A stretch of 64,000 nucleotides of DNA, from the NCBI GenBank assembly GCA_965204055.1, contig OZ241967.1:834144-898143 (forward strand), written 5' to 3'. The notes under the pieces are model-generated. The model worked only from the letters and a program-made list of their open reading frames with translations, was not told the DNA's origin and did not search any database. The position numbers and the translations under genes are program-made. The DNA is from Bdellovibrionales bacterium. Lineage in GTDB: Bacteria; Bdellovibrionota; Bdellovibrionia; Bdellovibrionales; UBA1609. Shown piece by piece: positions 19,726-57,151 of this stretch. The first letter of the stretch is position 1; each line of letters opens with the position of its first letter.

Positions 19726-19848
19726 TAACTAATCATCCGTGAATAATATATTTTCTGAAAAAAATCAGTGGTATATTCCTGCCTTTTAAGGAGATGTATA
19801 AAGTAGTTTCCTTAATTAAATACACTTTTTCACGGGTAATTAACTAAT
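19726..19848. mobile_element. MITE copy (CGTGA-type terminal inverted repeats)
   Basis: Left end TAACTAATCATCCGTGAATAA and right end TTTTCACGGGTAATTAACTAA are inverted repeats (~16/21 match). ~123 bp with no ORF. Same TIR type as the copies at 37899, 48987 and 57028. Confidence 0.5.
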
Positions 19849-19872
19849 AGGGATATAAGAAAGGTATAAGTT

Positions 19873-20142
19873 ATGATGATTGTGGGAGTTAAAATTTTAC
19901 CTAAGAAAGAAGTGTTGGATGTGCAAGGTCGCGCTATAGCAGACACTTTAAAACGGCAAGGTTATGCTATTGAAGATTGTCAGTATGGGAAGGTTATCAG
20001 ATTAAAAATTCAGACGAATGATCAAAAAACGGCTTTAGATCAGGCAAAAAAAATAGCAGAGTCAGTATTATGCAGTGCTCTTGTAGAAACCTACCAATTA
20101 GAAGTTTTATCCCACACACTCGATGATGATACGAGTCTATAA
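19873..20142 (+). CDS. purS: phosphoribosylformylglycinamidine synthase subunit PurS
   Basis: 89 aa; KILPKKEVLDVQGRAIADTLKRQGY is typical of PurS. Lies upstream of purQ. Confidence 0.85.
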   Translation: MMIVGVKILPKKEVLDVQGRAIADTLKRQGYAIEDCQYGKVIRLKIQTNDQKTALDQAKKIAESVLCSALVETYQLEVLSHTLDDDTSL

Positions 20143-20267
20143 AAAACCTGTCCTCGTGGAGGTGGGGATATATTATTTCTCTGGGTTGCCGTTTTTCAAG
20201 GGGCAGGAAGGCAACACAACACAGTTTTTTTTTACAGAGGATTAATTAAGAGAGAAAGTCAGGAATA

Positions 20268-20942
20268 ATGAAAATGAACTATAGTAAAATAAGAAAGAAG
20301 CCCATTGGGGTGCTGGTTTTTCCAGGTACTCAATGTGATCAAGATGTTATCCAAGCCCTAAAAGGTTTAAACTATCCTGTCCGCAAAATGTGGTATACAG
20401 AATTTTTTGCTCCAAAGGATTATTCTGCTTTTATTTTGCCTGGGGGGTTTTCCTACGGGGATTATTTGCGCGCGGGAGCTTTAGCAGGACATTCTCCAGC
20501 TATGAGAGATATCCATAAGGCGGCTAAACAGGGTTGGCCTATCTTAGGGATATGTAATGGCTTTCAAATTTTATGTGAAGCGGGTCTTTTAGAGGGAGTG
20601 TTAAGAATCAATAAAAGCCTTCGGTTTATTGATGATTGGGTAGAACTTGAGCTTTGTCATTCTTGTCGAGTGTGGGGAGGAGATGAAATGGCTAAAGTGG
20701 TTTGCATCCCTATTGCTCATAAGGAAGGTTCTTTTTACATAGATTCAGATGGGGTAAAAAAGCTGGAGGATAGGGGACAAATTTGGTGGAGATATAGAAA
20801 TAACCCCAATGGTTCTGTGGGAAATATAGCAGGTATAATGAATGAAAAGAAAAATGTGGCGGGTTTGATGCCTCACCCGGAAAGGGCTATGGCAGAATGG
20901 ATGGGAAGCTCTGATGGGGCTCTTTTCTTTAATTTTTTATAG
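20268..20942 (+). CDS. purQ: phosphoribosylformylglycinamidine synthase glutaminase subunit PurQ
   Basis: Class I glutamine amidotransferase with nucleophile context GICNGFQIL and the MPHPER motif. Confidence 0.9.
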   Translation: MKMNYSKIRKKPIGVLVFPGTQCDQDVIQALKGLNYPVRKMWYTEFFAPKDYSAFILPGGFSYGDYLRAGALAGHSPAMRDIHKAAKQGWPILGICNGFQILCEAGLLEGVLRINKSLRFIDDWVELELCHSCRVWGGDEMAKVVCIPIAHKEGSFYIDSDGVKKLEDRGQIWWRYRNNPNGSVGNIAGIMNEKKNVAGLMPHPERAMAEWMGSSDGALFFNFL

Positions 20943-20959
20943 TCAATCAGGGTGATGGA

Positions 20960-23134: not shown

Positions 23135-24976
23135 ATGTGTGGTATTATGGGGTATATGGGTTTTCGTGATTCAAAAGAGGTTTTGCTGAACGGGCTGGAA
23201 AAAATTCAGTATCGCGGTTACGACAGCATGGGGTTAGTGGTGGCCACAAAAAACGGATTTAAAAGAATTCGATCTGTGGGTGATATTAAACAACTTAGAA
23301 AAAAAGTAGTTAGTACAGGTGATATTTCCCATTCCTCTTACGGGCTGGCTCACAGTCGATGGGCCACGCATGGCGCGCCTTCTGAAGCCAATGCGCACCC
23401 TCATAAGGCAGAACATATTTATATTGTTCATAACGGGATTATCGAAAATGCCCAAGAATTAAAAAAAACTCTTCCTTATTTTTTTTCCTCTGAAACGGAT
23501 TCGGAGGTAATAGCTTATAGTTTGTTGGATCTTTATAAAAAAACAGGTTCTCTAAAAGAGGCTTTGTTTGATACCTTCTCCAAGATAAAAGGTGAGTATG
23601 CTTGCGCAGTTATGTCTGAAAAACATCCTAAAGAATTTTTTGCTTTTAAAAAAGGACCTTCTTTGTTGATAGGGGTAGGGGAAAGGGAAATATTTTTATG
23701 TAGTGATGCTCAAGGAATCCTGCCTTATACGAATAAAATATTTTTTTTAAAAGACGGAGAAGTAGCACACATTAAAGATGGAAAAGAGCTTTCTTTTTAC
23801 TCTTCTGAAAACTCTGAAAAAAAAATTAAAAAAAATATCACAACATTAAAATCTCAGGAGGATCGGACAGATAAGCAAGGCCACCCTCATTATATGCTGA
23901 AAGAAATTTATGAGCAACCAGGTTGCGTTTCTCGACTAATTCAGCAGAATATTAACAATAAAAATCACTTGGTAAAGATAAACGAAGGTGGAAAATATAA
24001 CCTTTTAGATCAAATTGTTCAAGAGGGAAGGCTTAGCATTGTGGCCTGTGGTAGTAGCTATTACTCAGCTCTTTATGGAAAATACACCATCGAACAACTT
24101 AGTCGTATTGCAGTGGAAGTGGATATGGCCAGTGAGTTTCGTTATCGAGCCCCTGTGTTACCGGATCGTACTCCCATTATGTTGATTTCTCAAAGTGGAG
24201 AGACCGCAGACACCCTGGCTGTTTTGAAAATGGCAAAGGAGCTAAACTGGCCTGTTTTAAGCTTGTGCAATGTGGAGCACTCTTCTTTAGATAGAGGTTC
24301 TACTACCCAACTTTATATGTGTTCAGGGGTGGAAAAAGGAGTAGCCAGTACTAAGGCTTTTGTGTCAACTTTAACAATGTTGTTTTTGTTGGCCCTGTTT
24401 TTAGGGAGACAAAACAAATATATTAATTCCTCTACAGAAAAAAAATATATTCAATCTTTACTCACTCTTCCCTCTCTTATGGAGGAGGTTTTATCTTGTG
24501 AGCGGGAATACACAGCTTTAGCTCATTTGGCAAAGCCACTTAAAAGTTTTATTTACTTAGGTAGAAATATCTATTACCCCCTGGCTTTAGAGGGGGCTTT
24601 AAAAATGAAAGAGTTAACTTACAAGCACGGGTCGGCTTATCCGGCGGGGGAAATGAAACATGGGCCCTTAGCTTTAGTGGATAAGGATATGTTAGTGGTA
24701 GGAATTGCACCTAAGTCTTCTGTTCGTCAAAAAACGCTGACCAACTTAGAGGAGGTGCGCTCGCGAGGGGGGAAGTTGATTGTGCTTGGGACTCAAGGGG
24801 ATAAGGAGGTAAAAGGGCTTGCCAAACATTTTTTATCTGTTCCTGCTTGCAATGAATATCTATCCGCCATTTTATGCGCTTTACCTCTTCAGTTAATGGC
24901 TTATCGGACGGCTTGTACTCTTGGGCACAATGTGGATCAGCCCAGAAATTTGGCCAAATCTGTTACTGTGGAATAA
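23135..24976 (+). CDS. glmS: glutamine--fructose-6-phosphate aminotransferase
   Basis: The start was chosen at MCGIMGY, because the Ntn amidotransferase needs Cys2; an SD AGAGGGGA lies upstream. Two SIS domains (SQSGETADT). C-terminal KSVTVE. The ORF is open from 23090. Confidence 0.95.
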   Translation: MCGIMGYMGFRDSKEVLLNGLEKIQYRGYDSMGLVVATKNGFKRIRSVGDIKQLRKKVVSTGDISHSSYGLAHSRWATHGAPSEANAHPHKAEHIYIVHNGIIENAQELKKTLPYFFSSETDSEVIAYSLLDLYKKTGSLKEALFDTFSKIKGEYACAVMSEKHPKEFFAFKKGPSLLIGVGEREIFLCSDAQGILPYTNKIFFLKDGEVAHIKDGKELSFYSSENSEKKIKKNITTLKSQEDRTDKQGHPHYMLKEIYEQPGCVSRLIQQNINNKNHLVKINEGGKYNLLDQIVQEGRLSIVACGSSYYSALYGKYTIEQLSRIAVEVDMASEFRYRAPVLPDRTPIMLISQSGETADTLAVLKMAKELNWPVLSLCNVEHSSLDRGSTTQLYMCSGVEKGVASTKAFVSTLTMLFLLALFLGRQNKYINSSTEKKYIQSLLTLPSLMEEVLSCEREYTALAHLAKPLKSFIYLGRNIYYPLALEGALKMKELTYKHGSAYPAGEMKHGPLALVDKDMLVVGIAPKSSVRQKTLTNLEEVRSRGGKLIVLGTQGDKEVKGLAKHFLSVPACNEYLSAILCALPLQLMAYRTACTLGHNVDQPRNLAKSVTVE

Positions 24977-25037
24977 CCTTGTTACTGTGGAATAACCTTG
25001 TTACTGTGGAATAACCTTGTTACTGTGGAATAACCTT
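24962..25037 (+). repeat. 19-bp exact tandem repeat x4 containing the glmS stop codon
   Basis: GTTACTGTGGAATAACCTT occurs at 24962, 24981, 25000 and 25019. Copy 1 encodes the last glmS codons (VTVE) plus the TAA stop. Confidence 0.95.
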
Positions 25038-25040
25038 GGT

Positions 25041-26021
25041 ATGAAAAAAATAGATTTTTTATTAATTATTGGAATTTTGATCTTGTGTTTCGGATATTAT
25101 TTGTGGCAGGAGCAAAGTCATCCAGATCAGCAAAAACAACAAGGGCAAAAAATGTTCCGAAGACACCAGAAAGACATAAAACCTTGGAAAAAAAATGTGC
25201 CAGTTCGTTCTGAACGCCTTGAACAAGAAATAACAGATCCTTATGAAAAGGCCCTTCAAATTTATTTATCAATAAATGAGGGGATAAAAATATCTGCTAA
25301 CCAATATGAAATGAAACAGCGCAAATATTCAGAAGACTTAACACAGGCAAAAGAATCTCTTGCACAATACCTGGAGGTCACTAAAAAGAGTTCTGTAGAA
25401 GGAGAGGTTGTTAAGGAAATGGTGCGAAAAAATTATGAAGTGGCTTTTAAGGAACTTTATATCATAGTTCAAAGTTCTGCAATGGGTATGCAGTCTATTA
25501 GTGGAGTGGGTGAAAAACTTAAAAAATCTGTTGAGTTTTATAAAAAGTCAGGTCGTCCCTGGAGAAAAGGTTCAGAGGTTTTTTTTATTAAATCTGTAAG
25601 CGATCATTTATACCATAGAGAAAAAATGAAAGAAATTTTTCAGAATATGGAAAACTCATTGAATGAATATGGTGAATCTATACAGAAACTAATTTCACTT
25701 TCTTCTTCCTCAGTAGATTTGTCTAAAGAGCTTAAAGGGTATTACAGATTAAAAGAAACAGACCCTGATAAAGCTAAAAAACTTTTTAAAGAAAATAAGG
25801 GTAAACTGGTTATAAAACAAAAAGATATTAAAGAGTCGATGACTGCTCTGGAAAAAACAGTGGAGCTTAAAATAGATGAATTTACAAAAATGGTTCCTGA
25901 TTTTATTTATCATATGGAATTGTCTTTAAGGGCACTTGAAAAAGTAAGTAAATATTCCCCAATACAGAGAGGGCTTTCTAATTCCATAAAACATCTTTCT
26001 ACTGCAATATTAAAACAGTAG
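25041..26021 (+). CDS. hypothetical membrane-anchored coiled-coil protein
   Basis: ATG at 25041 gives MKKIDFLLIIGILILCFGYYLW (N-terminal TM helix), followed by a K/E-rich helical region. The track ORF start at 25017 lies inside the 19-bp repeat. Confidence 0.55.
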   Translation: MKKIDFLLIIGILILCFGYYLWQEQSHPDQQKQQGQKMFRRHQKDIKPWKKNVPVRSERLEQEITDPYEKALQIYLSINEGIKISANQYEMKQRKYSEDLTQAKESLAQYLEVTKKSSVEGEVVKEMVRKNYEVAFKELYIIVQSSAMGMQSISGVGEKLKKSVEFYKKSGRPWRKGSEVFFIKSVSDHLYHREKMKEIFQNMENSLNEYGESIQKLISLSSSSVDLSKELKGYYRLKETDPDKAKKLFKENKGKLVIKQKDIKESMTALEKTVELKIDEFTKMVPDFIYHMELSLRALEKVSKYSPIQRGLSNSIKHLSTAILKQ

Positions 26022-31255: not shown

Positions 31256-31412
31256 TTAACTGAGTCACCTGTGCAAAACCCTGCTCATCCTTGTTAAACT
31301 AAAAATCCAAGTTGTTGGCTCTGCAAAGCCAAATCATTGGCTTTGCAGTCCCTTGAGGAGCTGGAATCTTGCTGGTTTTAAGAGGATGTGACTCAAGCCA
31401 TTTACTTAACTG
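31256..31412. mobile_element. MITE-like repeat module (variant TIR) with CTGCAAAGCC hairpin
   Basis: TTAACTGAGTCACCTGTGCAAAAC ... GATGTGACTCAAGCCATTTACTTAACTG. Internal perfect hairpin CTGCAAAGCC-N8-GGCTTTGCAG (31321-31348), followed by the CCCTTGAGGAGCTGGAATCTTGCTGG module that is also seen at 37815-37850. Confidence 0.45.
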
Positions 31413-36682: not shown

Positions 36683-37050
36683 ATTCCTCTGTAAAGCCAA
36701 GTACTTGGCTTTACAGTCTCGCGCTTCAGTGGGAATCTCTTGACTCTAAAACCGCAAAAAAGCTTTTTTTCAAAATCAATATCTTACTATATGCAAGATA
36801 GAGAGCATATTAGAAGATATTTTTATAACATACTGGAATCACTAAAACTTTTTATTTTACTAAAGTAAAGAAAAAAAGGTGGAGATTGTATTTTTTTTAA
36901 ATAGGTGTGAATTTTTTACATACCCTCATATAAATATTTTACAGGAATTATTCCTCCGTGCAAAATCTTTATTATTTTCTCTAAACTGAAAAGTCCAACT
37001 GCTTACTTTTTAGTTCTGCCTTGAGCTGGAGTTTTGCCGGTTTGGAGCAA
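36683..37050. repeat. degenerate MITE-derived modules downstream of lipB
   Basis: Hairpin CTGTAAAGCC-AAGTACTT-GGCTTTACAG (36689-36716). TTCAGTGGGAATCTC module. A TIR-like AATTATTCCTCCGTGCAAAATC at 36947, followed by a decayed copy of the hairpin and the GAGCTGGAGTTTTGCCGG module. Confidence 0.4.
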
Positions 37051-37100
37051 AATAAGTTCTGTGTTACTTTGTTATAACAATTTTTTTCACTTTCCACAGA

Positions 37101-37793
37101 TTATTTGTTAAGGTGGGAATGAAAAAAAGATTTTGCAGTTTTACACCAAAAAGAAAACACTTCTTTTAGATTTGCAGACACACCTTGATTTTTAAAAGAG
37201 TCGTGTGGGCGATTAAGCACACCACAACTTCTGATTAACTGAAATAGTTTAAGATCATTTTGTATATTGATAGCCAGTCCATGTTGGCTTACCCCACCTG
37301 AAATATGAATACCGAAAAAAGCAATTTTTCCTTTGTTTGTCCAAAGCCCAGCTGAAGTTTCTTTTTTTACAGCAAAGATTCCATATTCTTTTAAAGTAAT
37401 GATGGTGATTTTCTCTAACATAGATAAAAAATCTCTAAGGCGAATTTTCCACTTTAAAAGCTCCATGATGGGGTAAATGACTAATTGTCCTGGGGAGTGT
37501 AAAGTGGCTTGTCCTCCTCTTTTTATAGGCACAATTTCTATTTGTTTTTTTTTGTATTCCTCAATATTGGCACTAAGATCTTTTTCCTTTGTTCCTCTTA
37601 ACCCCAATGTGATGCAGGCAGGGCATTCAAAGCCCAGCAAGAAAGCTTGTCTGTTTTTACTTGCGGATTCTTTTAATTTTTCCTGTAAAGTAAGGCTTTC
37701 TCGATAAGGTAGTCTATCCTTCCAGATAAACTGAATATCTGAACAGTTATTAAAACTTTCTGATGAAAAAGAATTAACAATAGATTTTTCCAT
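37101..37793 (-). CDS. lipB: octanoyltransferase (lipoyl(octanoyl) transferase)
   Basis: RGGQATLHSPGQLVIYPI and KIAFFGIHISGGVSQHGLAINI motifs. The start was set at MEKSIV (37793) because the upstream 25 codons of the track ORF run into a MITE module. Confidence 0.9.
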   Translation of the reverse strand: MEKSIVNSFSSESFNNCSDIQFIWKDRLPYRESLTLQEKLKESASKNRQAFLLGFECPACITLGLRGTKEKDLSANIEEYKKKQIEIVPIKRGGQATLHSPGQLVIYPIMELLKWKIRLRDFLSMLEKITIITLKEYGIFAVKKETSAGLWTNKGKIAFFGIHISGGVSQHGLAINIQNDLKLFQLIRSCGVLNRPHDSFKNQGVSANLKEVFSFWCKTAKSFFHSHLNK

Positions 37794-37804
37794 ATTGTCC
37801 TTTC

Positions 37805-38074
37805 CAGTCGTCATTCTTGCTGAGGAGCTGGAATCTCTGGGTTTTTTAAAAAGATACGCCCCAAGCAATTTATTTAACTAAACACATCACAGTCGACCAA
37901 TTAGTCCTCCGTGATAAACCTTTTTCATCTCTAAACTGCAAAGCCAAGTACTTAGCTTTGCAGACCCTTGAAAGCGGGTATCCAAGACCTAAACTGAAAG
38001 CCTAAAAGTCTTTCAGCCTTTTTCAAGTGGGAATCTAGTTAAAAAAACAATCTTTTTCACGAGGCACTAATTAG
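37805..38074. mobile_element. MITE nest: a partial module followed by a full ~176-bp MITE
   Basis: 37815-37850 CTTGCTGAGGAGCTGGAATCTCTGGG is a module. The full element at 37899-38074 has TIRs AATTAGTCCTCCGTGATAAAC and CTTTTTCACGAGGCACTAATTAG, with internal hairpin CTGCAAAGCC-AAGTACTT-AGCTTTGCAG (37936-37963). Confidence 0.55.
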
Positions 38075-46539: not shown

Positions 46540-47137
46540 GTTTACTCCATTCCGGTTGTTTACTCCATTCTGGTTGTTTGCTCCAGTCATTTTGTTTGCT
46601 CCATTCTGGTTGTTTTTCCAGCTCTTTTGTGTGTTCCTTCTCTAACTTTGTTTTCTCCTGTTTTTTTGATTGTGCGGGTTGGTTTGCTAACTCCGTGCTT
46701 GTTTTAAGAGGGTCTGCTCCATATTTATTAACACCTTTTGTTCCTTTTTTTAATAACAATACACCTTCAAAAATTGAAAACATCCCTGTGCAAATTTTGG
46801 ATAAAGCAGGTATATCAGTTATAAAATCAATATGGGTTATAATCATTATTAACCAATAAACCCAACCTGGCAAGCCTAAATCATGCAGTCTTTTTATACT
46901 GGGAAAAGAGAATAAAAAACAAAGAGGGATTATAAGAAAAATAAAGGTTGTTACATCTGATTCCCCCTCTGACAGTTCTCTATCTATTAGTGACTCTATT
47001 CCAATACTTATAATTGCGAACAATAGCAAAAAAAGACCTCCTCCTATAAGTAATATTATTAAGTGTTGAAAGAAATATTTTTTTCGGCCTATTCTGCCTT
47101 TGTAACCGAATAAAGAAGTTTTATTTTTTATAGACAT
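46514..47137 (-). CDS. DUF805-family inner membrane protein with C-terminal W-S-K-Q repeat tail
   Basis: N-terminus SLFGYKGRIGRKKYFFQHL plus KRLHDLGLPGW are DUF805 hallmarks. The C-terminus is KQPEWSKQNDWSKQPEWSKQPEWSKQNEW. Confidence 0.7.
   Translation of the reverse strand: MSIKNKTSLFGYKGRIGRKKYFFQHLIILLIGGGLFLLLFAIISIGIESLIDRELSEGESDVTTFIFLIIPLCFLFSFPSIKRLHDLGLPGWVYWLIMIITHIDFITDIPALSKICTGMFSIFEGVLLLKKGTKGVNKYGADPLKTSTELANQPAQSKKQEKTKLEKEHTKELEKQPEWSKQNDWSKQPEWSKQPEWSKQNEWKNKK
46524..46619. repeat. 18-bp in-frame tandem repeat, ~5 copies
   Basis: Plus-strand units TTACTCCATTCCGGTTGT, TTACTCCATTCTGGTTGT, TTGCTCCAGTCATTTTGT and TTGCTCCATTCTGGTTGT. Confidence 0.9.
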
Positions 47138-47196
47138 TTTTCATTAATTCCTTTCTATTACTATTATATAGAATAGGGGTTAATTAAAATCAACCA

Positions 47197-48561
47197 TTAA
47201 TCAAATATTTTTCCTATGTTTAAGATATTTTTTGGATCAAAAACTTTTTTTATAGCTTTCATATATCTTAACTCTTCTTCAGAACAGGAGTAAAGCAGAT
47301 AAGGTTTTTTTAAAAGTCCCACTCCATGTTCTGCAGAAATAGAGCCTTTATATTTTTTTATAACAGTAAATAAAATGTTATTTACTGCTTCGCATTTCTT
47401 TATAAACAGGGCTTTTTTCATGTTTTCTGGTTTTAAAATATTAATATGCAGGTTTCCATCTCCTATATGGCCAAACCAAATTACTTTAAAATCAGGATAT
47501 TCTTTCTTTAAAACTTGATTCATTTCAGATAAAAAGTGAGGAAGGCAGGAGATACGAACCGATATATCATTTTTATAAGGAGAATAGGGAGAAAGAGATT
47601 CACTAATGTTTTCTCTAATAGTCCAAAGCTCTTTAACTTGGCGCGAATTTTCGCTTACTACCCCATCTGCAACATAACCTTTTTCTAAAGCAGACTCAAA
47701 AAGAGAGAGTGCTTTTTCCTGATCGCTTTGGTTGCATTCTATAAGGGCATAATATTCTTCTTTTTCTTTTAAAGGGAAGGAAACAGAAGAGTTTTTTTGC
47801 ACGTACTCTAAAGCAAGGCTGGTAAACATTTCAAAGGCTCTTAAAGTAAGCTTTGTTTTAAACAAATAATAAAGCTTCATTAATGAGTCTGTTCCCGGAA
47901 CAGAGAATAAAAACACGCAAGGGGATTCTGGTTTTTTTGTAAGCTGTAAGGTGATCTCTGTAATTAAACCTAAAGAACCTTCCGAACCAATAAAAAGATT
48001 AAGTAAATCATAACCGGCTGTGTTTTTAATCAACCCTCTTCCTAAAGTTAATGTTTTTCCTTCTCCTGTAACCACTTTTAGGCTTGTGATCCACTTTCTA
48101 AGAGAACCATAATTTATAACATGTACTCCGCCTGCGTTGGTGGCTACATTGCCTCCAATTTGGCTTGAACCTTCCGAGGCAAAAGAAATAGGAAAATAAA
48201 AAGATTTTTCTTTAGCTTTTTCTTGAACAGTTTGGGTGATAACTCCGGGTTGAACTGTCAAGGTTTGTTCTATTTCATTAAACTCCAGGATTTGGTTCAT
48301 ACGTTCAAACGATAAAACCGCTTCTTGATTTTGAGCCACAGCTGATCCGCTAAGCCCTGTGCGTCCTCCTGAGGCCACCAGGGGGGTATGGGTTTGAAGG
48401 GCCCACTTAACAATATCTTCTACATTTTTATGGGATTCAGGAAAAAGAACCATAGAAGGGGAGGGATTATATAGCTCTAACCAGTCACTCCCGTATTTTT
48501 GCAAGACATCTGGGTTTGTGCTCACTTGATCTTCTTTAAGAATTTTTTTTAAGCTTTCCAT
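47197..48561 (-). CDS. FAD-linked oxidase (GlcD / D-lactate dehydrogenase family)
   Basis: FAD_binding_4-type N-domain (VASGGRTGLSGSAV, ATNAGG) and a C-terminal SAEHGVG motif. Confidence 0.85.
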   Translation of the reverse strand: MESLKKILKEDQVSTNPDVLQKYGSDWLELYNPSPSMVLFPESHKNVEDIVKWALQTHTPLVASGGRTGLSGSAVAQNQEAVLSFERMNQILEFNEIEQTLTVQPGVITQTVQEKAKEKSFYFPISFASEGSSQIGGNVATNAGGVHVINYGSLRKWITSLKVVTGEGKTLTLGRGLIKNTAGYDLLNLFIGSEGSLGLITEITLQLTKKPESPCVFLFSVPGTDSLMKLYYLFKTKLTLRAFEMFTSLALEYVQKNSSVSFPLKEKEEYYALIECNQSDQEKALSLFESALEKGYVADGVVSENSRQVKELWTIRENISESLSPYSPYKNDISVRISCLPHFLSEMNQVLKKEYPDFKVIWFGHIGDGNLHINILKPENMKKALFIKKCEAVNNILFTVIKKYKGSISAEHGVGLLKKPYLLYSCSEEELRYMKAIKKVFDPKNILNIGKIFD

Positions 48562-48809: not shown

Positions 48810-48970
48810 AATAGCTATTTTCTAATATTTTAATAGTGTGATGTCAAATAATAATTCAAGAATATATTTGTTAGAAAGACAGGTGTTCTGAGAGCCTCAT
48901 TCTGGCTTTTAATAAGTCAGTTTAGTTAAGTCAAATTCTTGGTACATCTCCTTAAAAGTCAAAAAAAACT

Positions 48971-49115
48971 TTATCACGGGTGACTAATTAGTTGCCCGTG
49001 ATAAAATATGTTTTCTTAAGAAAAAAACTTGCTTTGCTTCAAAACAAGCGTGGATTCCCGCTTACGCGGGAATGACAGCGAGGACGAACAAGCTTTTTCA
49101 CGGGCGATTAATTAG
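48971..49115. mobile_element. MITE (129 bp) with an abutting solo TIR
   Basis: The full element at 48987-49115 has TIRs AATTAGTTGCCCGTGATAAAA and CTTTTTCACGGGCGATTAATTAG, with internal palindrome ATTCCCGCTTACGCGGGAAT (49054-49073). An extra inverted TIR, TTATCACGGGTGACTAATT (48971-48989), abuts it. Confidence 0.6.
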
Positions 49116-50934: not shown

Positions 50935-52521
50935 ATGAAAAAAATATCTTATACAAAGTATAAAGATTCTGGTATAGAATGGCTTGGGAAAATCCCAGAA
51001 CATTGGAAAATAAAAAGGTTAAAATTTTTATTATCTAAACCATTAAAATATGGTGCAAATGAATCTGCTGAATATGACGAGCCTTCATGGCCAAGATATG
51101 TGAGGATTACTGATATAGATGAAAATGGTATGTTAAAAAAAGAAACTTTTAAATCTATTCCTAAAGAAATAGCATACCAATATTTATTGAAAGATGATGA
51201 CATATTGTTTGCTCGTAGTGGTGCTACTGTTGGAAAAACTTTTCTTTATCAAAAGTGTTATGGGCAAATTGCATTTGCTGGATATCTAATTCGTGCAAGA
51301 TTTGAAATGTCGGATAATATCCCAAAATTTATTTACTATTTTTGTCAGTCGCAAGTTTATTGGAAATGGATTAAAAATAATTCTATACAAGCTACCATTC
51401 AAAATATTAGTGCTGAAAAATATTCTAACTTATATATATCCTTGCCTGATATATATGAACAAAAATCTATTACTATCTTCCTGAATAAAGCAACTTCTTG
51501 GATTGATTCCTTGATAGAAAAAATTAAAAAATCTATCACTCTTTTAAAAGAATACCGCTTGGCTTTAATCACTTCCGCAGTCACTGGACAAATTGATGTT
51601 CGTAAATCCCAAGCACAAGAAATAACAGTTCAAGCCCAAAAGACAGAAAGACAAAAACTTGCCAACTCTTTAAAAGTTCTGGATTTCCGCTTTCGCGAGA
51701 ATAACCGCCATGTCGGCGGTGACAAAGTTGCTCTGGCTCTTGTGTCTGATCATGAATTTGCAACCAAGCTACAAAGAGATTCCCGCTTTCGCGGGAATGA
51801 CCGCCGTGTCGGCGGTGACAAAGTCGCTGTAGCTCTTGTATCTGATCGTGACTCTATGTCTAAGTCACAAAAAGATTCCCGTTTTTGCGGGAATAACAAG
51901 CTTGTTGCTAAAAAAAGATCAAAAAAGTTAGCTTCACCTATATTTAAAAAAGCTGTTTTTGGAGCAGAAATTGTTGCTCAGTTAAAAGATGATCCTCATT
52001 TTGGCAGAACAAAATTTATGAAAACCCTTTATTTGTGTGAAGCTCATTTGCAAATCCCTCTAAAAGGAGAATACAAAAGAGAAGCCGCAGGACCTTTAGA
52101 TAGTTCTATTTATACAATAGAAGGGATTATGAAAAGAAACAAATGGTTTGAGGTTGTTAAAACAGGTTCTATGTTCAAATACAAACCTTTTAAAAACCCT
52201 GATGGACATAAGCAGTATTTTAATAAATACTGGGGAGATTATACAAAGGAATTAAACCGGCTTTTATCTATTATGAAGAATTTTACAACGGAACAATCAG
52301 AAATTGTAGATACCATTTATGCCGTATGGAATGATTTTTTATTGGAAGGGAAAAAACCCTCAGTTAGTGAAATTGTTTATGAAGTAAAAAACAACTGGCA
52401 TAAAAGAAAAAAAAGATTTTCTGATAATCAACTGCAAAAAGCCATTCAGTGGATGAAACAGCAAAATCTTGTTCCTAAAGGTTATGGACCTAAAACTAAA
52501 ACTTTAGAGGAAACAAAATGA
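50935..52521 (+). CDS. hsdS: chimeric ORF: half-size HsdS, a repeat-derived linker, and a Panacea(DUF4065)-like C-terminal module
   Basis: The N-terminus (YKDSGIEWLGKIPEHWKIKRLKFLL, DDILFARSGATVGKTFLY, LLKEYRLALITSAVTGQIDVRK) is one HsdS TRD plus a conserved helix. Then 96-bp GC-rich repeats are translated as DSRFRGNDRRVGGDKVA.ALVSD. Then comes GRTKFMKTLYLCEAH...AAGPLDSSIY. The Panacea assignment is tentative. Confidence 0.65.
   Translation: MKKISYTKYKDSGIEWLGKIPEHWKIKRLKFLLSKPLKYGANESAEYDEPSWPRYVRITDIDENGMLKKETFKSIPKEIAYQYLLKDDDILFARSGATVGKTFLYQKCYGQIAFAGYLIRARFEMSDNIPKFIYYFCQSQVYWKWIKNNSIQATIQNISAEKYSNLYISLPDIYEQKSITIFLNKATSWIDSLIEKIKKSITLLKEYRLALITSAVTGQIDVRKSQAQEITVQAQKTERQKLANSLKVLDFRFRENNRHVGGDKVALALVSDHEFATKLQRDSRFRGNDRRVGGDKVAVALVSDRDSMSKSQKDSRFCGNNKLVAKKRSKKLASPIFKKAVFGAEIVAQLKDDPHFGRTKFMKTLYLCEAHLQIPLKGEYKREAAGPLDSSIYTIEGIMKRNKWFEVVKTGSMFKYKPFKNPDGHKQYFNKYWGDYTKELNRLLSIMKNFTTEQSEIVDTIYAVWNDFLLEGKKPSVSEIVYEVKNNWHKRKKRFSDNQLQKAIQWMKQQNLVPKGYGPKTKTLEETK
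51683..51894. repeat. 96-bp tandem repeat (~2.2 copies) built from GC-rich palindromes
   Basis: ATTTCCGCTTTCGCGAGAAT at 51683, ATTCCCGCTTTCGCGGGAAT at 51779 and ATTCCCGTTTTTGCGGGAAT at 51875. The first two are followed by ACCGCC-N5-GGCGGT. The same ATTCCCGC...GCGGGAATGAC core is present in the MITEs at 49054 and 57095. Confidence 0.9.
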
Positions 52522-53624
52522 AAACAAAGTTTTTACCAAAATTTAAAATTACAAAGTCCCTACTCAACCATTTAATGGAAATTGAGCAGGCCAGAGGTTT
52601 TTTGAAAGCCGCCCATTTATCCCCTCAATGGATCAAAAAAATGAGTCAAAAAAGCTTTTTATTGGAAGCGCACCACACTACCCATATAGAAGGAACACAG
52701 CTTACTTTTGAACAATCAAAAAGAATTTTAGCTGGTAAAAAACTTATATCCGATGCCAATAAAGAGGATATAAAAGAAGTTCAAAACTATAAAGATGCCT
52801 TTAACCTTATATCTTCTCTAAGTAGCAATAAATCAACAAAACTTGGAGAACCACCAATTACAGAAACTCTTATTAAACAGATTCATAAAGAACTGGTTAA
52901 AGGAGTGCGGGGAGGGAGTGCTCAACCCGGAAGATACAGGAGCATACAAAATTATATTGGCAACTCTGTCACCAAAGAGATTATTTACATACCTCCTAAG
53001 CCAAAGGAAGTGCCAGCTCTTATGAAAGATTTTGCGAAATGGATCAATCAAGAATCGGATATTCATCCTGTTTTAAAAAGTGGTATTATTCAATTTCAGT
53101 TTGTGCATATTCATCCCTTTGTGGATGGCAATGGACGCACATCGCGATTGCTTTGCACAGCTTTTCTTTATCAAAAAGACTATGATTTTAAAAAGCTTTT
53201 TTCTATTAGTGAGTATTACGACAAAGACAGACAAAATTTTTACAAGGCCATTCAGTCTGTCAGAAATAATAATATGGATATGACGGGTTGGTTAGAGTAT
53301 TTTGTTAAAGGTTTTTTATTTCAAATGAATTTAGTTATGGATATTGGAAAAAAAGTTATTTTTAAAGATGCTTTAATACAAGACTACAATTTATCTCAAA
53401 GGCAAGGTGTTATTATTGAGCATATTTTAGAGAACGGAAAACTCTTTCCAAAAGATTTTGAAGAATTGAAAAAGGAAATGCAAAAAGTGAGTAAAACAGC
53501 CACCGGTAAAAAAGTAACAATCACTAAAAGAACTCTGCAAAGAGATTTGAAAGATATGGTAGATAAAAAAATTATTAAGGTAGAAGGAAAGACCAATCGA
53601 CAATTTTACCGCCTTTTAAAATAG
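52518..53624 (+). CDS. Fic family protein (Fic_N plus Fic core plus C-terminal wHTH-like region)
   Basis: Fic motif HPFVDGNGRTSR. N-terminal inhibitory-type motif TTHIEG ([ST]xxxE[GN]). The start overlaps the upstream stop (ATGA). Confidence 0.9.
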   Translation: MKTKFLPKFKITKSLLNHLMEIEQARGFLKAAHLSPQWIKKMSQKSFLLEAHHTTHIEGTQLTFEQSKRILAGKKLISDANKEDIKEVQNYKDAFNLISSLSSNKSTKLGEPPITETLIKQIHKELVKGVRGGSAQPGRYRSIQNYIGNSVTKEIIYIPPKPKEVPALMKDFAKWINQESDIHPVLKSGIIQFQFVHIHPFVDGNGRTSRLLCTAFLYQKDYDFKKLFSISEYYDKDRQNFYKAIQSVRNNNMDMTGWLEYFVKGFLFQMNLVMDIGKKVIFKDALIQDYNLSQRQGVIIEHILENGKLFPKDFEELKKEMQKVSKTATGKKVTITKRTLQRDLKDMVDKKIIKVEGKTNRQFYRLLK

Positions 53625-53629
53625 GGTTA

Positions 53630-53707
53630 AACTTGCGACAAACTTGCGACAAGCTTGCGACAAACTTGCGACAAGCTTGCGACAAACTTGCGACAAACTT
53701 TGCGACA
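53630..53707. repeat. 11-bp tandem repeat x7 (A[A/G]CTTGCGACA)
   Basis: Units start at 53630, 53641, 53652, 53663, 53674, 53685 and 53696; the last has one extra T. Lies between the fic stop (53624) and the SD/GTG of the hsdR remnant (53733). Confidence 0.95.
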
Positions 53708-53861
53708 TATTGTAACACAAGGAGGTGTCTAAGTGTCTGATAATACTAAAGAAATCGCCTTTGAGAAGGCTATAGAATGGCACTTATTAAATAAAGGTGG
53801 ATATAGTAAAGGAAAAAGAGAACAATTTGACCCCGTTCGAGGGATGGATCCTGAATTTTAA

Positions 53862-54432
53862 TCTTCACGGGTTTAATTCCCCGTGGCTTGCCACGCTCCT
53901 TATAAGGCGTTAGCCTTATTATATGGGGAAGTATATTTATAAAAGTCACAATGTATCGATTTTGCTTTATCATTTAGTATGTCCGATAAAGTATAGAAAG
54001 CTTGTGTTGTCGGATAAAGTTTCGCTGGAATTAAAGTGGATATGTAAAGAGATTAGTCAGCGTTATGAGATGGAGTTTATAGAGATAGGTTTAGATGGGG
54101 ATCATGTTCATTTTTTGATTCAGTCTGTGCCGATGTATAGTCCTACACGGATTTGTCGGATAGTGAAGAGTTTAACGGCTCGTGAGTTATTTAGGCGGTG
54201 TCCTGATGTGAAGAAGTTTTTGTGGGGTGGTGAGTTTTGGACGAAGGGATATTTTATAAGCACGGTGGGTCATCATGGTGATGAGCAGAAGATCAGTGAT
54301 TATGTGAAGAATCAAGGTAATAAGTCAGGTTATAAGAAGATTTACAGTCAGCAACTGCGGTTGTTTTGAGAGCACAGATATTGGCGATAGACAACAGTGA
54401 TACCCCGTGGCTTGCCACGGGGAGGCTTCATT
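53862..54432 (+). mobile_element. IS200/IS605-family element (tnpA only)
   Basis: Subterminal hairpins CCCCGTGGCTTGCCACG (53879-53895) and CCCCGTGGCTTGCCACGGGG (54403-54422) flank a Y1 transposase gene. No terminal inverted repeats, as expected for this family. Boundaries are approximate. Confidence 0.8.
53923..54369 (+). CDS. tnpA: IS200/IS605 family Y1 (HUH) transposase TnpA
   Basis: 148 aa with YHLVCPIKYRK, HUH motif in GDHVHFLIQ, and catalytic Tyr region TKGYFISTVG. Confidence 0.9.
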   Translation: MGKYIYKSHNVSILLYHLVCPIKYRKLVLSDKVSLELKWICKEISQRYEMEFIEIGLDGDHVHFLIQSVPMYSPTRICRIVKSLTARELFRRCPDVKKFLWGGEFWTKGYFISTVGHHGDEQKISDYVKNQGNKSGYKKIYSQQLRLF

Positions 54433-54519
54433 TGATTTTATTAAAGAAACTACCAAGAAGAGACTCAGGTCCTTCTTATTATTTTGATGATGATGTTACT
54501 CTTCAGTATTACCGCCTCC

Positions 54520-54784
54520 AGAGAATAAGCGAAAGTTCTATCTCTCTTGAGAGTGGGATAGAAAGTGAAGTATCTGGGCCTACCTCTGTAGGAACAGGAG
54601 TATCAATAGATGAAACCATTGAACTTTCTCATCTGATAGATATTTTAAATGAGCGGTTTGGAACAAGCTTTACACCGGCAGATCAACTGTTCTTGGATTC
54701 CATTAAGGAAGATGCGGTTGCTGATTCTAATTTAAGAGAGGTAGCAATGGCTAATCCGATGGAAAATTTTGGATATATTTTTTT
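54520..54784. repeat. 265-bp direct repeat, copy 1 (target-site duplication of the IS1634-like element)
   Basis: AGAGAATAAGCGAAAG...GGATATATTTTTTT reads identically to 56736-57000 by eye. It ends exactly at the left IR. Confidence 0.95.
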
Positions 54785-56735
54785 CCTGACTTCAGCACAA
54801 CGCAATGCAATAAATGAGTGATTTCCGATATTTACAAATTTTTGGGGGAACACATTTTTAAGATTTAGTTCAAGAAGTGGAGATAAATTTAGACACTCTT
54901 TTAAGACCTAAGGCCTCGTATATGGATCTTATCTCTTGTGTGCTTTTAGAGGGCATACGATAAAGATTTTTGTTTGCGTCCTCTATAAGGCTATATTGAT
55001 CTCTTTTTAAAATCTCTCTCATCTGCCTTATGCTGAAGTTTAATCCTCTTTGTTCCATCCGATACTTCATAGTATAGGAAAGAGAGTAAGCTAAGAAGCA
55101 TATAGCTATATGGGACTCTATTCTTTTCCTCTTCCAATGGTAAATGGGTCTCATCTTAAGGTTGTGTTTGCACACACGAAAAGCCTCTTCTATCTTCCAA
55201 AGTCTCCTGTATCGGGTCAGTATCTCTTGAGGGGTTTGCTCTGTTCTTATGTTGGTTATTACTCCATGCAGACCATCCCACTGACTATCTTCTTTTATCT
55301 TTTGTTCGTTTAATGTAGCTTTTGTCTTTTGAACTGTGACATACTTTTTTGTTCCATAATTAGAGATAAGGCTTTTTATAGGAATTTGGTTTTTCTTTAC
55401 TTTTTTCATCAGTCTTTCAATGAGTCTTAGTCTATCGGACTTGTTCTTCTTGGCTCTCTTCTTAGAGTAGCTGACAATCAGTCTTCTTTCCTTATGCTCA
55501 AACTCCTTTATCCAATGAAACTCATTGGCCACAACAGCGGGTTTAAAGTCTTGGTTTAATATCTCCTCTTTTTTAGTTTTAGAAAGAGTTTTTAGTTTAC
55601 AGGCCACTACATACTGAATACCCTCTTCTTCCATAAGCTTAAGGTTTTTTTCATTAAACATAGCTCTATCAGCGACTAATACCGCCTTTTTAACAGTGAA
55701 TCTTTGTTTTAGCTTTTTCACTGTGGAGATAAGGGTAGAACCTTCGCTTGTGCTTCCTGGAAAAAGCTCATAGCTTAGAGGGTGGCCTTCTTGGTTGGTG
55801 ATAAGGGCTAAGACGACTTGAGTCTCTTTAAACTTTAAGTCTTTGCTAAAGCCGAACTGTCTTAGGTCATCTTCTTCAAAGCTTTCAAAGTAAAGGGTGG
55901 TGACATCAAAGAAGAGGACATCTACTTCTTGGTTAAAGAGGCTGAGGGTGTTTTTAGCTACTGTGTCTTTTACTTGGTCTATTCGGGGGTGAAGTCTATC
56001 CATCATTCGATACATCTGATCTAAGTGCACCTGTTCGTTAAAGTCTTCTTTTAAAGTCTCTACAGTTTTTCTTTTAGAATCAGGATGAGCTACACGAGAA
56101 AGGACGCAGTATTTTAAAATATCGTTCCACTGCTTATCTTTTTTAGTGTTTTGTATGAGAGTGTGGAAGCCTAACTGTTCATAGACAGCCCCACATACTC
56201 CTTTAATGCCATGATGAACACGTGCTTTTTCGTATGGTTTTTTAAGAGAGAAAAGGGAAGGAGACTTGGACTTTTTCTTTTGGTTCTGGTTCTTAGTTTT
56301 TTTGTTTAAAGGATCTTTGCTGTAGATGATCTCAGCCATACCGGGTAAAGCGGGTTGGCGATCATTGCAGAGCTTTATAATCATTCTTTGTGATATTTTT
56401 TCTAAAGAGGAAATGACTTCTGGTTTTGAAGAAGAGCCCACAAAATGTATTGTTTTATGTTTTGTTTTTAAACCTTCTCGGACAGACTCCACAATCCGAA
56501 AGGATTTAATTTTACGGTCTTTGTTTTTCCCTGAGATTTTTGTAGTAACTTTTACAAACATATTTTTACAGTGCCAGAAGAGATATAGGGTGTAAAGGTC
56601 TGGGAGTGGACTACAAGTGGTGTTTTTAGTATATTTTACCCTTCAAAACTACATGAAAACAGCCTGGCGGTGCATCAAAAACCCTAAAAAACATCAAAAT
56701 ATTTTTTTAACACATAGCGTTGTGCTGAAGTCGGG
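54785..56735 (-). mobile_element. IS1634-like (IS4 superfamily) insertion sequence, 1951 bp
   Basis: Terminal IRs CCTGACTTCAGCACAACGCAATG (54785-54807) and the reverse complement of 56713-56735, CCCGACTTCAGCACAACGCTATG (21/23 match). Single transposase ORF. Flanked by the 265-bp direct repeats. Confidence 0.85.
54870..56561 (-). CDS. IS1634/IS4-family DDE transposase
   Basis: 563 aa. N-terminus MFVKVTTKISGKNKDRKIKSFRIVESVREG resembles the IS1634-type start. DDE regions are VLFFDVTTLYFES, VLVADRAM and LWKIEEAFRVCKH. Confidence 0.85.
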   Translation of the reverse strand: MFVKVTTKISGKNKDRKIKSFRIVESVREGLKTKHKTIHFVGSSSKPEVISSLEKISQRMIIKLCNDRQPALPGMAEIIYSKDPLNKKTKNQNQKKKSKSPSLFSLKKPYEKARVHHGIKGVCGAVYEQLGFHTLIQNTKKDKQWNDILKYCVLSRVAHPDSKRKTVETLKEDFNEQVHLDQMYRMMDRLHPRIDQVKDTVAKNTLSLFNQEVDVLFFDVTTLYFESFEEDDLRQFGFSKDLKFKETQVVLALITNQEGHPLSYELFPGSTSEGSTLISTVKKLKQRFTVKKAVLVADRAMFNEKNLKLMEEEGIQYVVACKLKTLSKTKKEEILNQDFKPAVVANEFHWIKEFEHKERRLIVSYSKKRAKKNKSDRLRLIERLMKKVKKNQIPIKSLISNYGTKKYVTVQKTKATLNEQKIKEDSQWDGLHGVITNIRTEQTPQEILTRYRRLWKIEEAFRVCKHNLKMRPIYHWKRKRIESHIAICFLAYSLSYTMKYRMEQRGLNFSIRQMREILKRDQYSLIEDANKNLYRMPSKSTQEIRSIYEALGLKRVSKFISTS

Positions 56736-57000
56736 AGAGAATAAGCGAAAGTTCTATCTCTCTTGAGAGTGGGATAGAAAGTGAAGTATCTGGGCCTACC
56801 TCTGTAGGAACAGGAGTATCAATAGATGAAACCATTGAACTTTCTCATCTGATAGATATTTTAAATGAGCGGTTTGGAACAAGCTTTACACCGGCAGATC
56901 AACTGTTCTTGGATTCCATTAAGGAAGATGCGGTTGCTGATTCTAATTTAAGAGAGGTAGCAATGGCTAATCCGATGGAAAATTTTGGATATATTTTTTT
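56736..57000. repeat. 265-bp direct repeat, copy 2
   Basis: Starts immediately after the right IR and reads identically to 54520-54784. Confidence 0.95.
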
Positions 57001-57027
57001 TAAAAAGCTTGAAGATTTGTTTATAGA

Positions 57028-57151
57028 TAGTCGGTCGTGAAAAAGTATGTTGCAACAAAGTAAACATGGCTTACTTTGTCCTAAAACAGGCGAGATTCCC
57101 GCTCAAGGCGGGAATGACAGCAGGGGTGACAGGGTTTATCACGGGCCACTA
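57028..57151. mobile_element. MITE (124 bp) inserted in the hsdR 3' region
   Basis: TIRs TAGTCGGTCGTGAAAAAG and TTTATCACGGGCCACTA. Internal ATTCCCGCTCAAGGCGGGAATGACAGC (57095-). Removing exactly 57028-57151 rejoins the hsdR frame as ...LEDLFIENRMEQNEDII. Confidence 0.65.

Follow-up and report, generated by a model that had tools for sequence, protein, structure and literature searches.

A MITE family of probable IS5-type origin from uncultured bacteria

The window, by which we mean the whole 64-kb stretch of DNA analysed, contains nine copies or fragments of a short repeated element, in addition to one weak candidate. Most of the copies are intergenic, and several lie between divergent genes. 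The elements are 109–165 bp long and non-coding, and none has an open reading frame of its own; the element length is mostly 133–136 nt in related assemblies. The element proper reads 5'-GTnnCCCGTGAWAAA ... TTTWTCACGGGnnAC-3', with terminal inverted repeats that are each other's complement. The 21-nt end motif TAATTAGTNNCCCGTGAWAAA was found six times in the window at up to three mismatches, as compared to 0.09 times expected from shuffled sequences, and CCGTGAWAA was found seven times (0.70 expected). Thus, the similarity of the ends exceeds the shuffled background against which an earlier note on this DNA had proposed to check it. The same note had counted the outer TAATTA as part of the inverted repeat, but this sequence lies outside the ends and is a target-site duplication of 6 bp, rarely 7 bp.

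The four copies that had been described as clear (starting at 19726, 37899, 48987 and 57028) are all present at these positions. The eno–purS intergenic region holds an intact copy at 19726..19846, the element of which (19732–19840, 109 nt) belongs to the CTTTTAAGGAGATGTA module subfamily and is flanked by the non-palindromic direct repeat TAACTA at 19726–31 and 19841–46. Another intact copy, at 37898..38073, consists of a 164-nt element (37904–38067) with two internal hairpins, flanked by CAATTA (37898–903) and TAATTA (38068–73). The CAATTA is common with the preceding copy (37794..37897), which has no recognisable left end, a right end reading TCACAGTcgAC at 37897 and the module GAGGAGCTGGAATCT. 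The variant previously placed at 37805–37895 is a copy, and one that abuts its neighbour at 37898–37903. A third intact copy is located upstream of hsdM at 48985..49114 (element 48991–49108, 118 nt), with the hairpin GATTCCCGC-TTAC-GCGGGAATGAC and with TAATTA at 48985–90 and 49109–14. Its left TAATTA is common with a partial copy, consisting of the right-hand part, at about 48911..48984, which ends in TTTATCACGGGTGAC at 48984. The partial copy is of the same subfamily as 19732–19840, the interior of which it matches in the opposite orientation, and the supposed solo inverted repeat at 48971 is simply its right end.

The remaining copies are decayed to various degrees. The copy upstream of gap (31264..31392) has the ends GTCACCTGTGCAAAA and TTTTAAGAGGATGTGAC, the perfect hairpin CTGCAAAGCC-N8-GGCTTTGCAG and the module GAGGAGCTGGAATCT, but no recognisable duplication. 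It is common to the window and a close relative, where the orthologous copy (L057, position 6622) reads TAGTCAACTGTGAAAAA, closer to the consensus. A single stretch given earlier as 36683–37050 is indeed decayed but consists of two copies, the second of which exceeds that end. One is internally shortened, at approximately 36684..36780, and carries the hairpin CTGTAAAGCC-N8-GGCTTTACAG and AGTGGGAATCTC. The other, at 36945..37103, contains an element at 36951–37097 with the ends TTCCTCCGTGCAAAA and TTTTTCACTTTCCAC; its flanks GAATTA and AGATTA are alike at 4/6 positions, and the right flank overlaps the stop codon of a lipoate-ligase-like gene. The weak candidate, a possible and heavily decayed copy in the interval that separates purS from the following gene (20149..20248), has a weak left end and a weak right end (TTTTTACAGAGGATTA-ATTA), was detected only at four mismatches and was not relied on. 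An isolated end-like 21-mer, AATTTAGTATCCTATGATAAA, is located on the minus strand in a 27-nt spacer between two genes (58370..58390) and is also found in the close relative, with one mismatch to a 17-mer there; it may be either a relic or a chance match.

The hsdR gene, which is present here as a remnant only, contains a copy in its C-terminal part at 57024..57156 (element 57030–57149, 120 nt; same subfamily as 48991–49108). The left duplication is TAGATA (57024–29) and the right one is TAGAATA (57150–56), with one extra A. This copy fits the model of a 6-bp duplication only with that extra nucleotide. It had been described as clean, on the grounds that removal of exactly 124 nt restores the reading frame. 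However, homologues of hsdR read FID-RMEQNE, which requires 127 nt to be removed, and the frame is restored by any deletion length equal to 1 modulo 3.

The flanks of 115 end-to-end pairs were tabulated, and identical 6-mers were observed in 56 pairs and identical 7-mers in 3. Duplicated 6-mers that are not palindromic (TAAATA, TATTTA, TAAGTA and TAACTA) are direct repeats. TAATTA was absent from at least one side in 70 pairs, 11 of which were exact, a number that was reached in 0 of 2,000 shuffles. The earlier note had suggested a tabulation of the flanking dinucleotides; the 2-nt flank is equal in 52 of 73 pairs, but the duplication that emerged is one of 6 bp. With the ends set at GT/AC, abutting copies have one common 6-mer at 36 of 40 junctions. 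Neighbours with one common TAATTA explain both the apparent solo end and the head-to-tail arrays.

When 185,579 species genomes were searched for the 21-mer, 50 stretches were obtained, about 40 of them from the 2.0-Mb assembly OZ241921.1 and the others mostly from four assemblies labelled Bdellovibrionales, Oligoflexia or "Rickettsiales". OZ241921.1 contains syntenic orthologues of the window genes with 56–84% amino-acid identity. Approximately 400 kb from related assemblies, which are labelled as Bdellovibrionales or Oligoflexia, contained more than 100 elements with the same ends. Further copies were identified in approximately 58 kb of the close relative, which is 95–98% identical to the window and the contigs of which break at or inside copies. 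At one site, the relative is filled by a 172-nt copy (L058, 6698–6869) between TAGTATA and TAATATA, whereas the window has an empty site at about 12720 that reads CCCCTTAATAATATAGTATTTTC, confirming the duplication. At another, the relative has a copy (L059, 16575) and the window has a 59-nt spacer (47137–47197). A copy in such a similar strain opposite a clean empty site indicates that the family has moved recently; a comparison of insertion sites among related strains had also been proposed before. Short length, lack of coding capacity, inverted repeats, target-site duplications, many copies and filled and empty sites all agree with the original designation as a MITE family.

No transposase of the NF033578 type (NCBIfam, IS5-family transposase) was detected by tblastn in the window or in the sequences examined from the close relative (approximately 58 kb) and from related assemblies (approximately 400 kb), which make up a small part of each genome. 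This bears out the earlier statement that the window has no autonomous partner. A longer element with the same ends and a transposase does exist, but in other bacteria. The Halieaceae assembly JAAENL010000155.1 (locus L044) contains a full-length 1.6-kb element with the ends GTCACCCGTGAAAAA and GTCGCCCGTGATTTT and the flanks TAATTA and TAGATA, the 450-aa open reading frame of which scores 497 bits on NF033578 (cut-off 275 bits). The MITE ends are identical at 13–15 of 15 positions to the termini of NF033578-type elements in other bacteria; one copy in the close relative starts with GTCGCCCGTGAAAAA, which is identical at 15/15 positions to many autonomous left ends. Relatives identified solely from the similarity of their proteins carry these ends too, and all three plasmid copies have perfect 6-bp duplications (GATATG, TACCTC and CAGCTT). 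The exact duplications among 43 complete metagenome copies include TACCTG, CCGCTA, TAGCGG, GAGATC, GATCTC and TAATTA, with a flank consensus of TAGCTA/G as compared to TAATTA for the MITEs. Perfect duplications were observed in 7 of 39 autonomous copies of metagenome contigs, a low number that we assume to result from chimeric assembly of multicopy elements. All 80 autonomous relatives from metagenomes are G+C-rich (52–68%), so that none is obviously from this AT-rich lineage.

The interiors are mosaics of hairpin modules that are shared between copies and differ between subfamilies, as the earlier note had recognised. The hairpin ATTCCCGC..GCGGGAAT is present at 49054 and 57095, the module GAGGAGCTGGAATCT at 31354 and 37821, and the CTGNAAAGCC-N8-GGCTTTNCAG hairpin was confirmed as common to copies. 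Of three N8 hairpins called perfect, the one at 31321 is so, as is the one at 36689, with a compensatory T:A pair, but the one at 37936 has one mismatch. The hairpin CTGNAAAGCC..GGCTTTN'CAG in the source species has C:G, T:A or A:T as the N:N' pair. In OZ241921.1, the stems of 36 aligned units fall into four or five sequence types, unrelated to one another yet each complementary, around a conserved 32-nt centre; 20-bp stems are swapped wholesale with complementarity kept, and one pair of the centre is GC in 21 units, AU in 9 and UA in 6. The copies fold much better than shuffled sequences (z −4 to −7). The module GATTCCCGC..GCGGGAATGAC is also found in frame within hsdS (51682–51969). In a search of Rfam with the window and six copy-rich loci, no family matched the elements; only tRNA-Gln reached the gathering score, and hits below threshold were weak. 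By eye, the MITE interiors showed no similarity to the loci L044 and L060–L063 beyond the 15-bp ends. With the ends alone matching, this comparison would not point to an origin by internal deletion of a parent element.

Given the ends, duplication, arrays and strain polymorphism, together with the end identity with autonomous elements elsewhere, we conclude that the copies are very probably non-autonomous elements (MITEs) that stem from an IS5-family element and owe their movement to a DDE transposase of the NF033578 type, acting in trans. We infer that such a transposase is or was present in the source lineage. It would bind to the terminal 15 bp and place the element in a 6-bp staggered cut, preferably in the palindrome TAATTA (general form TA-NN-TA), and the cut would be duplicated on both sides. 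Each insertion would thereby provide a fresh TAATTA at either side, where later copies could land beside earlier ones. This would account for head-to-tail arrays in which neighbours have one TAATTA in common, suggesting that arrays grow by re-insertion into the duplicated target.

The junctions can also be parsed as those of an IS30-family derivative with the ends TAGT...ACTA, a duplication of the central 2–3 bp and arrays of joined ends with a 2-bp spacer. IS30-family elements duplicate 2 bp of AT-rich targets and join end to end across spacers of 2 bp (PMC5821093, PMC6349718), and the equal 2-nt flanks and the two nucleotides between ACTA and TAGT at 36 of 40 junctions make this parse possible for the MITEs alone. 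It is nevertheless very unlikely, since the 6-mers duplicated by the autonomous relatives differ at the two positions beside GT/AC (TACCTG, TAGCGG, GAGATC, CAGCTT), which shows that these positions are part of the target and not of the element. Moreover, autonomous elements with these termini encode IS5-family transposases, the ends of IS30 itself are unrelated to those in the window, and the IS30 transposase of E. coli, used as a tblastn query, gave no match in the window and the sequences of relatives examined. The IS30-type reading with TAGTnnCCCGTGA ends was accordingly disfavoured, being excluded by the duplications of the autonomous relatives. We consider it equally hard to believe that the elements are REP/REPIN-like or IS200/IS605-derived palindromes, moved in single-stranded form by a Y1 transposase that recognises CACGGG...CCCGTG hairpins. 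The copy junctions are long palindromes, the interiors are hairpin mosaics as in BIMEs, and the window does contain an IS200-like Y1 transposase gene (53923–54369) with CCCCGTGGCTTGCCACGGGG hairpins at its ends and a left end that reads TTCACGGGTTTAATTCCCCGTGG. Those end hairpins are, however, its own and different from GTnnCCCGTGAWAAA; Y1 transposases make no target-site duplications, whereas duplications in direct orientation are present here, and the element ends match DDE-type elements.

The hairpins raise the question of host use. The copies could be immobile relics, kept for transcript stability, processing or small RNAs, or as protein-binding palindromes, with transposition as their origin only. 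Stems that stay paired through compensatory changes in both the source species and OZ241921.1, the folding scores and the mostly intergenic locations, several between divergent genes, are in line with this proposal. We nonetheless hold it to be improbable in view of the recent movement seen as strain polymorphisms, the lack of a matching Rfam family and the copy within a pseudogene; in addition, each stem type may represent a single amplified lineage, with arms that were complementary from the start. For the MITE family itself, we put forward only as a doubtful suggestion that the hairpin interiors may be a selected structured nucleic-acid module, an RNA or single-stranded DNA hairpin used in movement, carried on IS5-type ends. 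In that case, the family would serve to distribute a functional hairpin among the intergenic regions of a reduced genome.

The family is new but of an ordinary, known kind, and existing knowledge of transposition is unchanged by it. For an AT-rich lineage that is poorly known and represented by assemblies only, it provides a repeat of which the ends, duplication and target are defined, and its copies explain the break points of these assemblies. The family also points to places of rearrangement and of disrupted genes and gives markers for strain comparison. A TAATTA target that renews itself offers a simple explanation for how small elements come to lie in head-to-tail arrays, and the tie to one IS5-family subgroup means that the mechanism can be tested using a transposase cloned from other bacteria.

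The closest known systems are the NF033578-type IS5 elements, such as the 1.6-kb copies on the Sphingobium yanoikuyae plasmid NZ_CP060123.1, on Acidiphilium multivorum pACMV1 and pACMV2 and in JAAENL010000155.1. They resemble the MITEs in the 15-bp termini GTCRCCCGTGAAAAA and the 6-bp duplication. Their preferred target is TAGCTA instead of TAATTA, both palindromes of the form TA-NN-TA, and one metagenome copy has TAATTA on both sides like the MITEs. These elements are 1.56–1.65 kb long with a transposase, whereas those in the window are much shorter, lack a transposase gene and differ in their unrelated hairpin interiors, high copy number, head-to-tail arrays and AT-rich lineage.

The Correia elements (NEMIS) of Neisseria are similar in size (100–160 bp), terminal inverted repeats and a target that contains TA; they too are numerous, mostly intergenic and variable between strains. 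They are transcribed into hairpin-forming RNA, to which the predicted hairpins of the window elements can be likened, but their end sequence is different and their duplication is the dinucleotide TA instead of 6 bp. To our knowledge, they have no established parent among insertion sequences on the basis of matching ends, whereas one kind has been identified for the window family. The BIMEs and REP sequences of enterobacteria and the BOX elements of pneumococci are likewise clustered mosaics of short hairpin units. REP sequences have neither transposon-type inverted repeats nor target duplications and are linked to Y1 (RAYT) transposases, in contrast to the duplications and DDE-type ends of the window family. 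The Rickettsia palindromic elements, to which we know of no sequence similarity, are also short palindromic repeats of a reduced, AT-rich genome; the source genome here is reduced and AT-rich as well, and probably host-associated. The occurrence of GATTCCCGC..GCGGGAATGAC inside hsdS adds to this likeness, but the window elements are bounded by transposon ends with duplications.

The four copies that the earlier note had considered clearest were all recovered at their places in the window, which has a G+C content of 36%. They align end to end, yet their interiors are only about half identical. The end motif TAATTAGTNNCCCGTGAWAAA was matched six times in the window with at most 3 mismatches, as compared to 0.09 matches expected from dinucleotide-preserving shuffles, and the 9-mer CCGTGAWAA was matched seven times, as compared to 0.70 expected. 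Thus, the AT-richness of the background, which the note had raised as a possible source of the similarity, does not account for the end motif. Further copies were located by reading the remaining intergenic regions of the window. An end previously taken for a solo terminal inverted repeat is real, but it belongs to a partial copy that stops at 48984, the interior of which is a reverse match to the copy at 19732-19840. Decayed copies are indeed present in the region proposed at 36683-37050, but there are two of them (approximately 36684-36780 and 36951-37097), the second of which extends beyond the proposed end. Another decayed copy is located at 31264-31392, and a copy ending at 37897 abuts the copy at 37904-38067. 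The total for the 64-kb window is nine copies or fragments. A further candidate (20149-20248) is weak, and an end-like 21-mer (58370-58390) stands in isolation. Three interior types were observed among the copies: a GATTCCCGC..GCGGGAATGAC hairpin (48991-49108 and 57030-57149), a CTTTTAAGGAGATGTA module (19732-19840 and 48911-48984), and a CTGNAAAGCC-N8-GGCTTTNCAG hairpin with GAGCTGGAATCT in the copies at 31-38 kb.

A scan with the 21-mer, in which each bacterial and archaeal species was represented by one genome, returned 50 stretches. About 40 of these derive from a single 2.0-Mb assembly labelled Bdellovibrionales (OZ241921.1), and most of the remaining ones from OZ241877.1, OZ241456.1, one Oligoflexia assembly and one assembly labelled Rickettsiales; three were isolated matches in unrelated taxa. 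The genes of the window have syntenic orthologues in OZ241921.1 at 56-84% amino-acid identity, which makes this assembly a relative of the source organism. In the loci from the related assemblies, more than 100 end-to-end pairs were identified, mostly of 133-136 nt, and the family that had been proposed from the window alone thus has many further copies. When the OZ241921.1 copies were compared with the window by BLAST, almost nothing matched except the ends; the interiors have diverged between OZ241921.1 and the window species. In the literature searched, no paper was found to mention MITEs in Bdellovibrionota or Oligoflexia. Further repeat families in the related genome include a long (GAAT)n microsatellite (locus L009, 1210-1270) and the repeat TTTGTGAAAAGGGGGTTCAAAACGAGTTCGGC... 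(L009 1465 and 3045, L016 4270). In an OZ241456.1 ORF for a repeat protein (L038 105-561), end-like 17-mers recur at 114-nt intervals, which is probably a coincidental resemblance inside a coding tandem repeat.

Solitary copies have the arrangement xxTAATTA/GTnnCCCGTGAAAAA ... TTTTTCACGGGnnAC/TAATTAxx. Flanking 6-mers that are not palindromic (TAAATA, TATTTA, TAAGTA, TAACTA) have the same orientation on both sides, and therefore represent a target duplication rather than a part of the inverted repeat. The flanks are identical over the 6-mer in 56 of 115 pairs and over the 7-mer in 3 of 115. An exact duplication was observed in 11 of the 70 pairs without TAATTA on both sides, as compared to none in 2000 shuffles, and one 6-mer is common to both abutting copies at 36 of 40 junctions. 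An IS30 model would instead imply a 2-bp duplication, 2-bp spacers and ends of the form TAGT...ACTA, and since the outer TA hardly varies, the 2-bp and 6-bp readings cannot be separated from the MITEs alone. In the duplications of the autonomous relatives, which are full-length IS5-family elements with the same ends as the MITEs, the two bases adjacent to the element vary and recur on the far side. The ends of the element are therefore GT...AC and the duplication is 6 bp, and the IS30 model was dropped. The window contains TAATTA at only 22 positions in 64 kb. An insertion into TAATTA would leave this sequence on both sides of the new copy, and with a strong preference for TAATTA the next insertion would often hit one of the flanking sites. 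Such re-insertion would place neighbouring copies exactly one TAATTA apart, which matches the observed arrangement.

The autonomous relatives were identified from one of the isolated matches of the genome scan. This locus, in a Halieaceae assembly (L044, 54% G+C), is a complete 1.6-kb element with the left end GTCACCCGTGAAAAA, the right end GTCGCCCGTGATTTT and the flanks TAATTA and TAGATA. DUF772 and DDE_Tnp_1 are both present in its 450-aa ORF, for which the NCBIfam model NF033578, "IS5 family transposase", gives a score of 497 bits (cut-off 275). A plasmid search with the L044 protein, which is independent of the end sequences, recovered homologous elements in Sphingobium (ends GTCGCCCGTGAAAAA and GTCGGCCGTGAACAA, duplication GATATG), in Acidiphilium (two copies, left end GTCACCCGTGAAAAA, duplications TACCTC and CAGCTT) and in Hoeflea. 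A profile built from these transposases was then used to scan metagenomes, which added 80 loci, of which 43 are complete, with a length of 1.56-1.65 kb, GTCGCCCGTGAA... at both ends and the flank consensus TAGCTA/G. The exact duplications include TACCTG, CCGCTA, TAGCGG, GAGATC and GATCTC, and TAATTA in one case. No transposase of the NF033578 type was found in the window, in the loci of the close relative or in those of related assemblies labelled Bdellovibrionales, Oligoflexia or Rickettsiales, and no AT-rich autonomous relative was found among the metagenome loci, all of which are G+C-rich and none obviously from the source lineage. We therefore infer, rather than observe, a source of transposase in the lineage.

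Other candidates for a longer element were rejected. The stretch at L045 3570-6090, considered as a 2.5-kb two-ended element, consists of two separate copies around aminotransferase and lipoprotein genes. A Transposase_31 (Rpn/YhgA-like) gene (L009 1610-2746) and the gene for a 994-aa protein with no Pfam hits (L011) are both multicopy beside OZ241921.1 copies, and neither is bounded by the ends. The ORFs beside single ends in other assemblies encode membrane or secreted proteins, not transposases. Multicopy Transposase_31 genes are often separated from a MITE by 0-100 nt (besides L009, at L058 7361-8377 and in L010, L021, L022, L027, L028 and L046). The close relative has one such gene that the window lacks at approximately 12640, some 100 nt from the polymorphic MITE site.

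Recent movement was evident from the comparison with this close relative. Near-identical versions of some of the window proteins were found by exact look-ups on contigs of ENA assemblies ERZ25068284 and ERZ25070167, and the fetched contigs (among them L058 and L059) are 95-98% identical to the window at the DNA level. The relative contains a 172-nt copy (L058 6698-6869) at a site where the window reads CCCCTTAATAATATAGTATTTTC. The filled site is CCCCTTAA-TAGTATA-[GT...AC]-TAATATA-GTATTTTC, in which TAATATA is duplicated (7 bp) with a single substitution. The window has no more than a 59-nt spacer at the position where, in the relative, a copy with a perfect end begins (L059 16575). Both strains have the decayed copy at 31264, the relative with the better-preserved end. 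Contig ends in the relative fall beside the hsdR region, within the copy at L059 16575 and 5 nt short of the copy at 19732, and contig ends at copies fit the behaviour of assemblers at repeats. Two larger strain differences adjoin copies. The window segment 5231-9867 (4.6 kb, with two large ORFs of 884 and 556 aa) is missing from the relative, in which approximately 230 nt (L058 11169-11402) ending in a MITE right end abut the same AT/TATTAATCTCG junction. A rearrangement breakpoint at approximately 38070-38138 lies next to a pair of MITE copies.

Synteny with the relative (L058 17702-18160 and L059 8712) is broken at window positions 38070-38138 (approximately) and 38600-38630. The window segment 38138-38596 is located elsewhere in the relative, where fab genes precede the Hjc-like gene. 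Several tandem repeats were also observed. Two coding repeats differ in copy number from the relative: one with 33-nt units at 18090-18287 (ORF 17640-18359), for which approximately 360 nt are missing in the relative, and one with 21-nt units at 57509-57560 (ORF 57364-57621), of which the relative has two more. The region 60467-61003 contains a 179-nt unit in two identical tandem copies and, after these, a third copy of 63% identity, which overlaps tRNA-Gln (60900-60973); the relative seems to have fewer copies. The 19-nt unit TGTTACTGTGGAATAACCT is present in four and a half tandem copies at a gene boundary (24961-25055).

The hsdR gene (53734-57270) is a remnant of approximately 42 N-terminal and 210 C-terminal codons. 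The N-terminal codons are followed by an element with an IS200-like Y1 transposase (approximately 53860-54420) and then by the C-terminal codons, which are broken by an IS4-like element and a MITE. The note had stated that deletion of exactly 124 nt restores the reading frame, but the frames rejoin after any deletion with a length of 1 modulo 3. The motif F-[IV]-[DE]-R-M-x-x-N, lacking any extra residue, was found in every HsdR homologue obtained from plasmids by tblastn, which makes the ancestral sequence TTTATAGATAGAATGG and the length to be removed 127 nt. These 127 nt comprise the 120-nt element, one TAGATA and one extra A, the right-hand copy being TAGAATA. A PDB search with the HsdR C-terminus returned nothing useful. 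The IS4-like element (54785-56735) encodes a 563-aa DDE_Tnp_1 transposase, of which at least eight near-identical copies are present on the source chromosome; it was excluded as a partner of the MITEs since its ends, CCTGACTTCAGCACAACGC, are unrelated. This element is flanked by 265 bp of hsdR sequence in perfect direct duplication (54520-54784 and 56736-57000). No normal target duplication comes near this length, and the duplication could represent a real rearrangement or an assembly artefact. In the relative, the whole segment 53712-57290 is missing and an 11-nt repeat array joins window position 57291 directly. The array, with the unit AAACTTGCGAC(A), is located between fic and hsdR in the window (53607-53711) and is arranged differently in the relative.

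Folding of the copies is far more favourable than that of shuffled sequence, with z values of -4 to -7 for most of them. In the window species, one stem position of the first hairpin is occupied by three different Watson-Crick pairs. In OZ241921.1, a 32-nt centre is conserved across 36 aligned units (TTCGNGACGGAATACCTTGGACN'CTCAC, with covarying N and N'), and one pair inside it is GC in 21, AU in 9 and UA in 6 units. The stems flanking the centre are approximately 20 bp long and have four or five unrelated sequences, with perfect complementarity in every case; an example of these long-hairpin interiors, found in loci L004-L050, is L037 7443-7714. At L045 5929-6090, the centre is broken by a further small hairpin insert. 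The centre motif lies nearly always within an element, with both ends detected for 44 of 54 occurrences, whereas the GATTCCCGC..GCGGGAATGAC hairpin also occurs outside elements and in frame in hsdS (50935-52521). Each of three in-frame 96-bp tandem repeats in this gene (51682-51969) starts with GATTCCCGC-TTTC-GCGGGAATGAC, the hairpin also present inside two MITE copies, and the palindromic module thus lies within coding sequence. No Rfam family matches the elements. Selection may maintain the stem pairing, or the pairing may simply stem from the amplification of a few lineages whose arms were complementary at the outset.

Judged by every sequence-level criterion, the elements are MITEs, of use for the annotation and comparison of these genomes and of modest general interest. 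They are neither derived from IS30, nor REP-like, nor a described RNA. Their interiors show no visible descent from the subterminal regions of the autonomous IS5-family elements. The ends place the MITEs with one subgroup of this family, the NF033578 type, with which they have three features in common: the 15-bp ends, a target of the TA-NN-TA type and a duplication of the same length.
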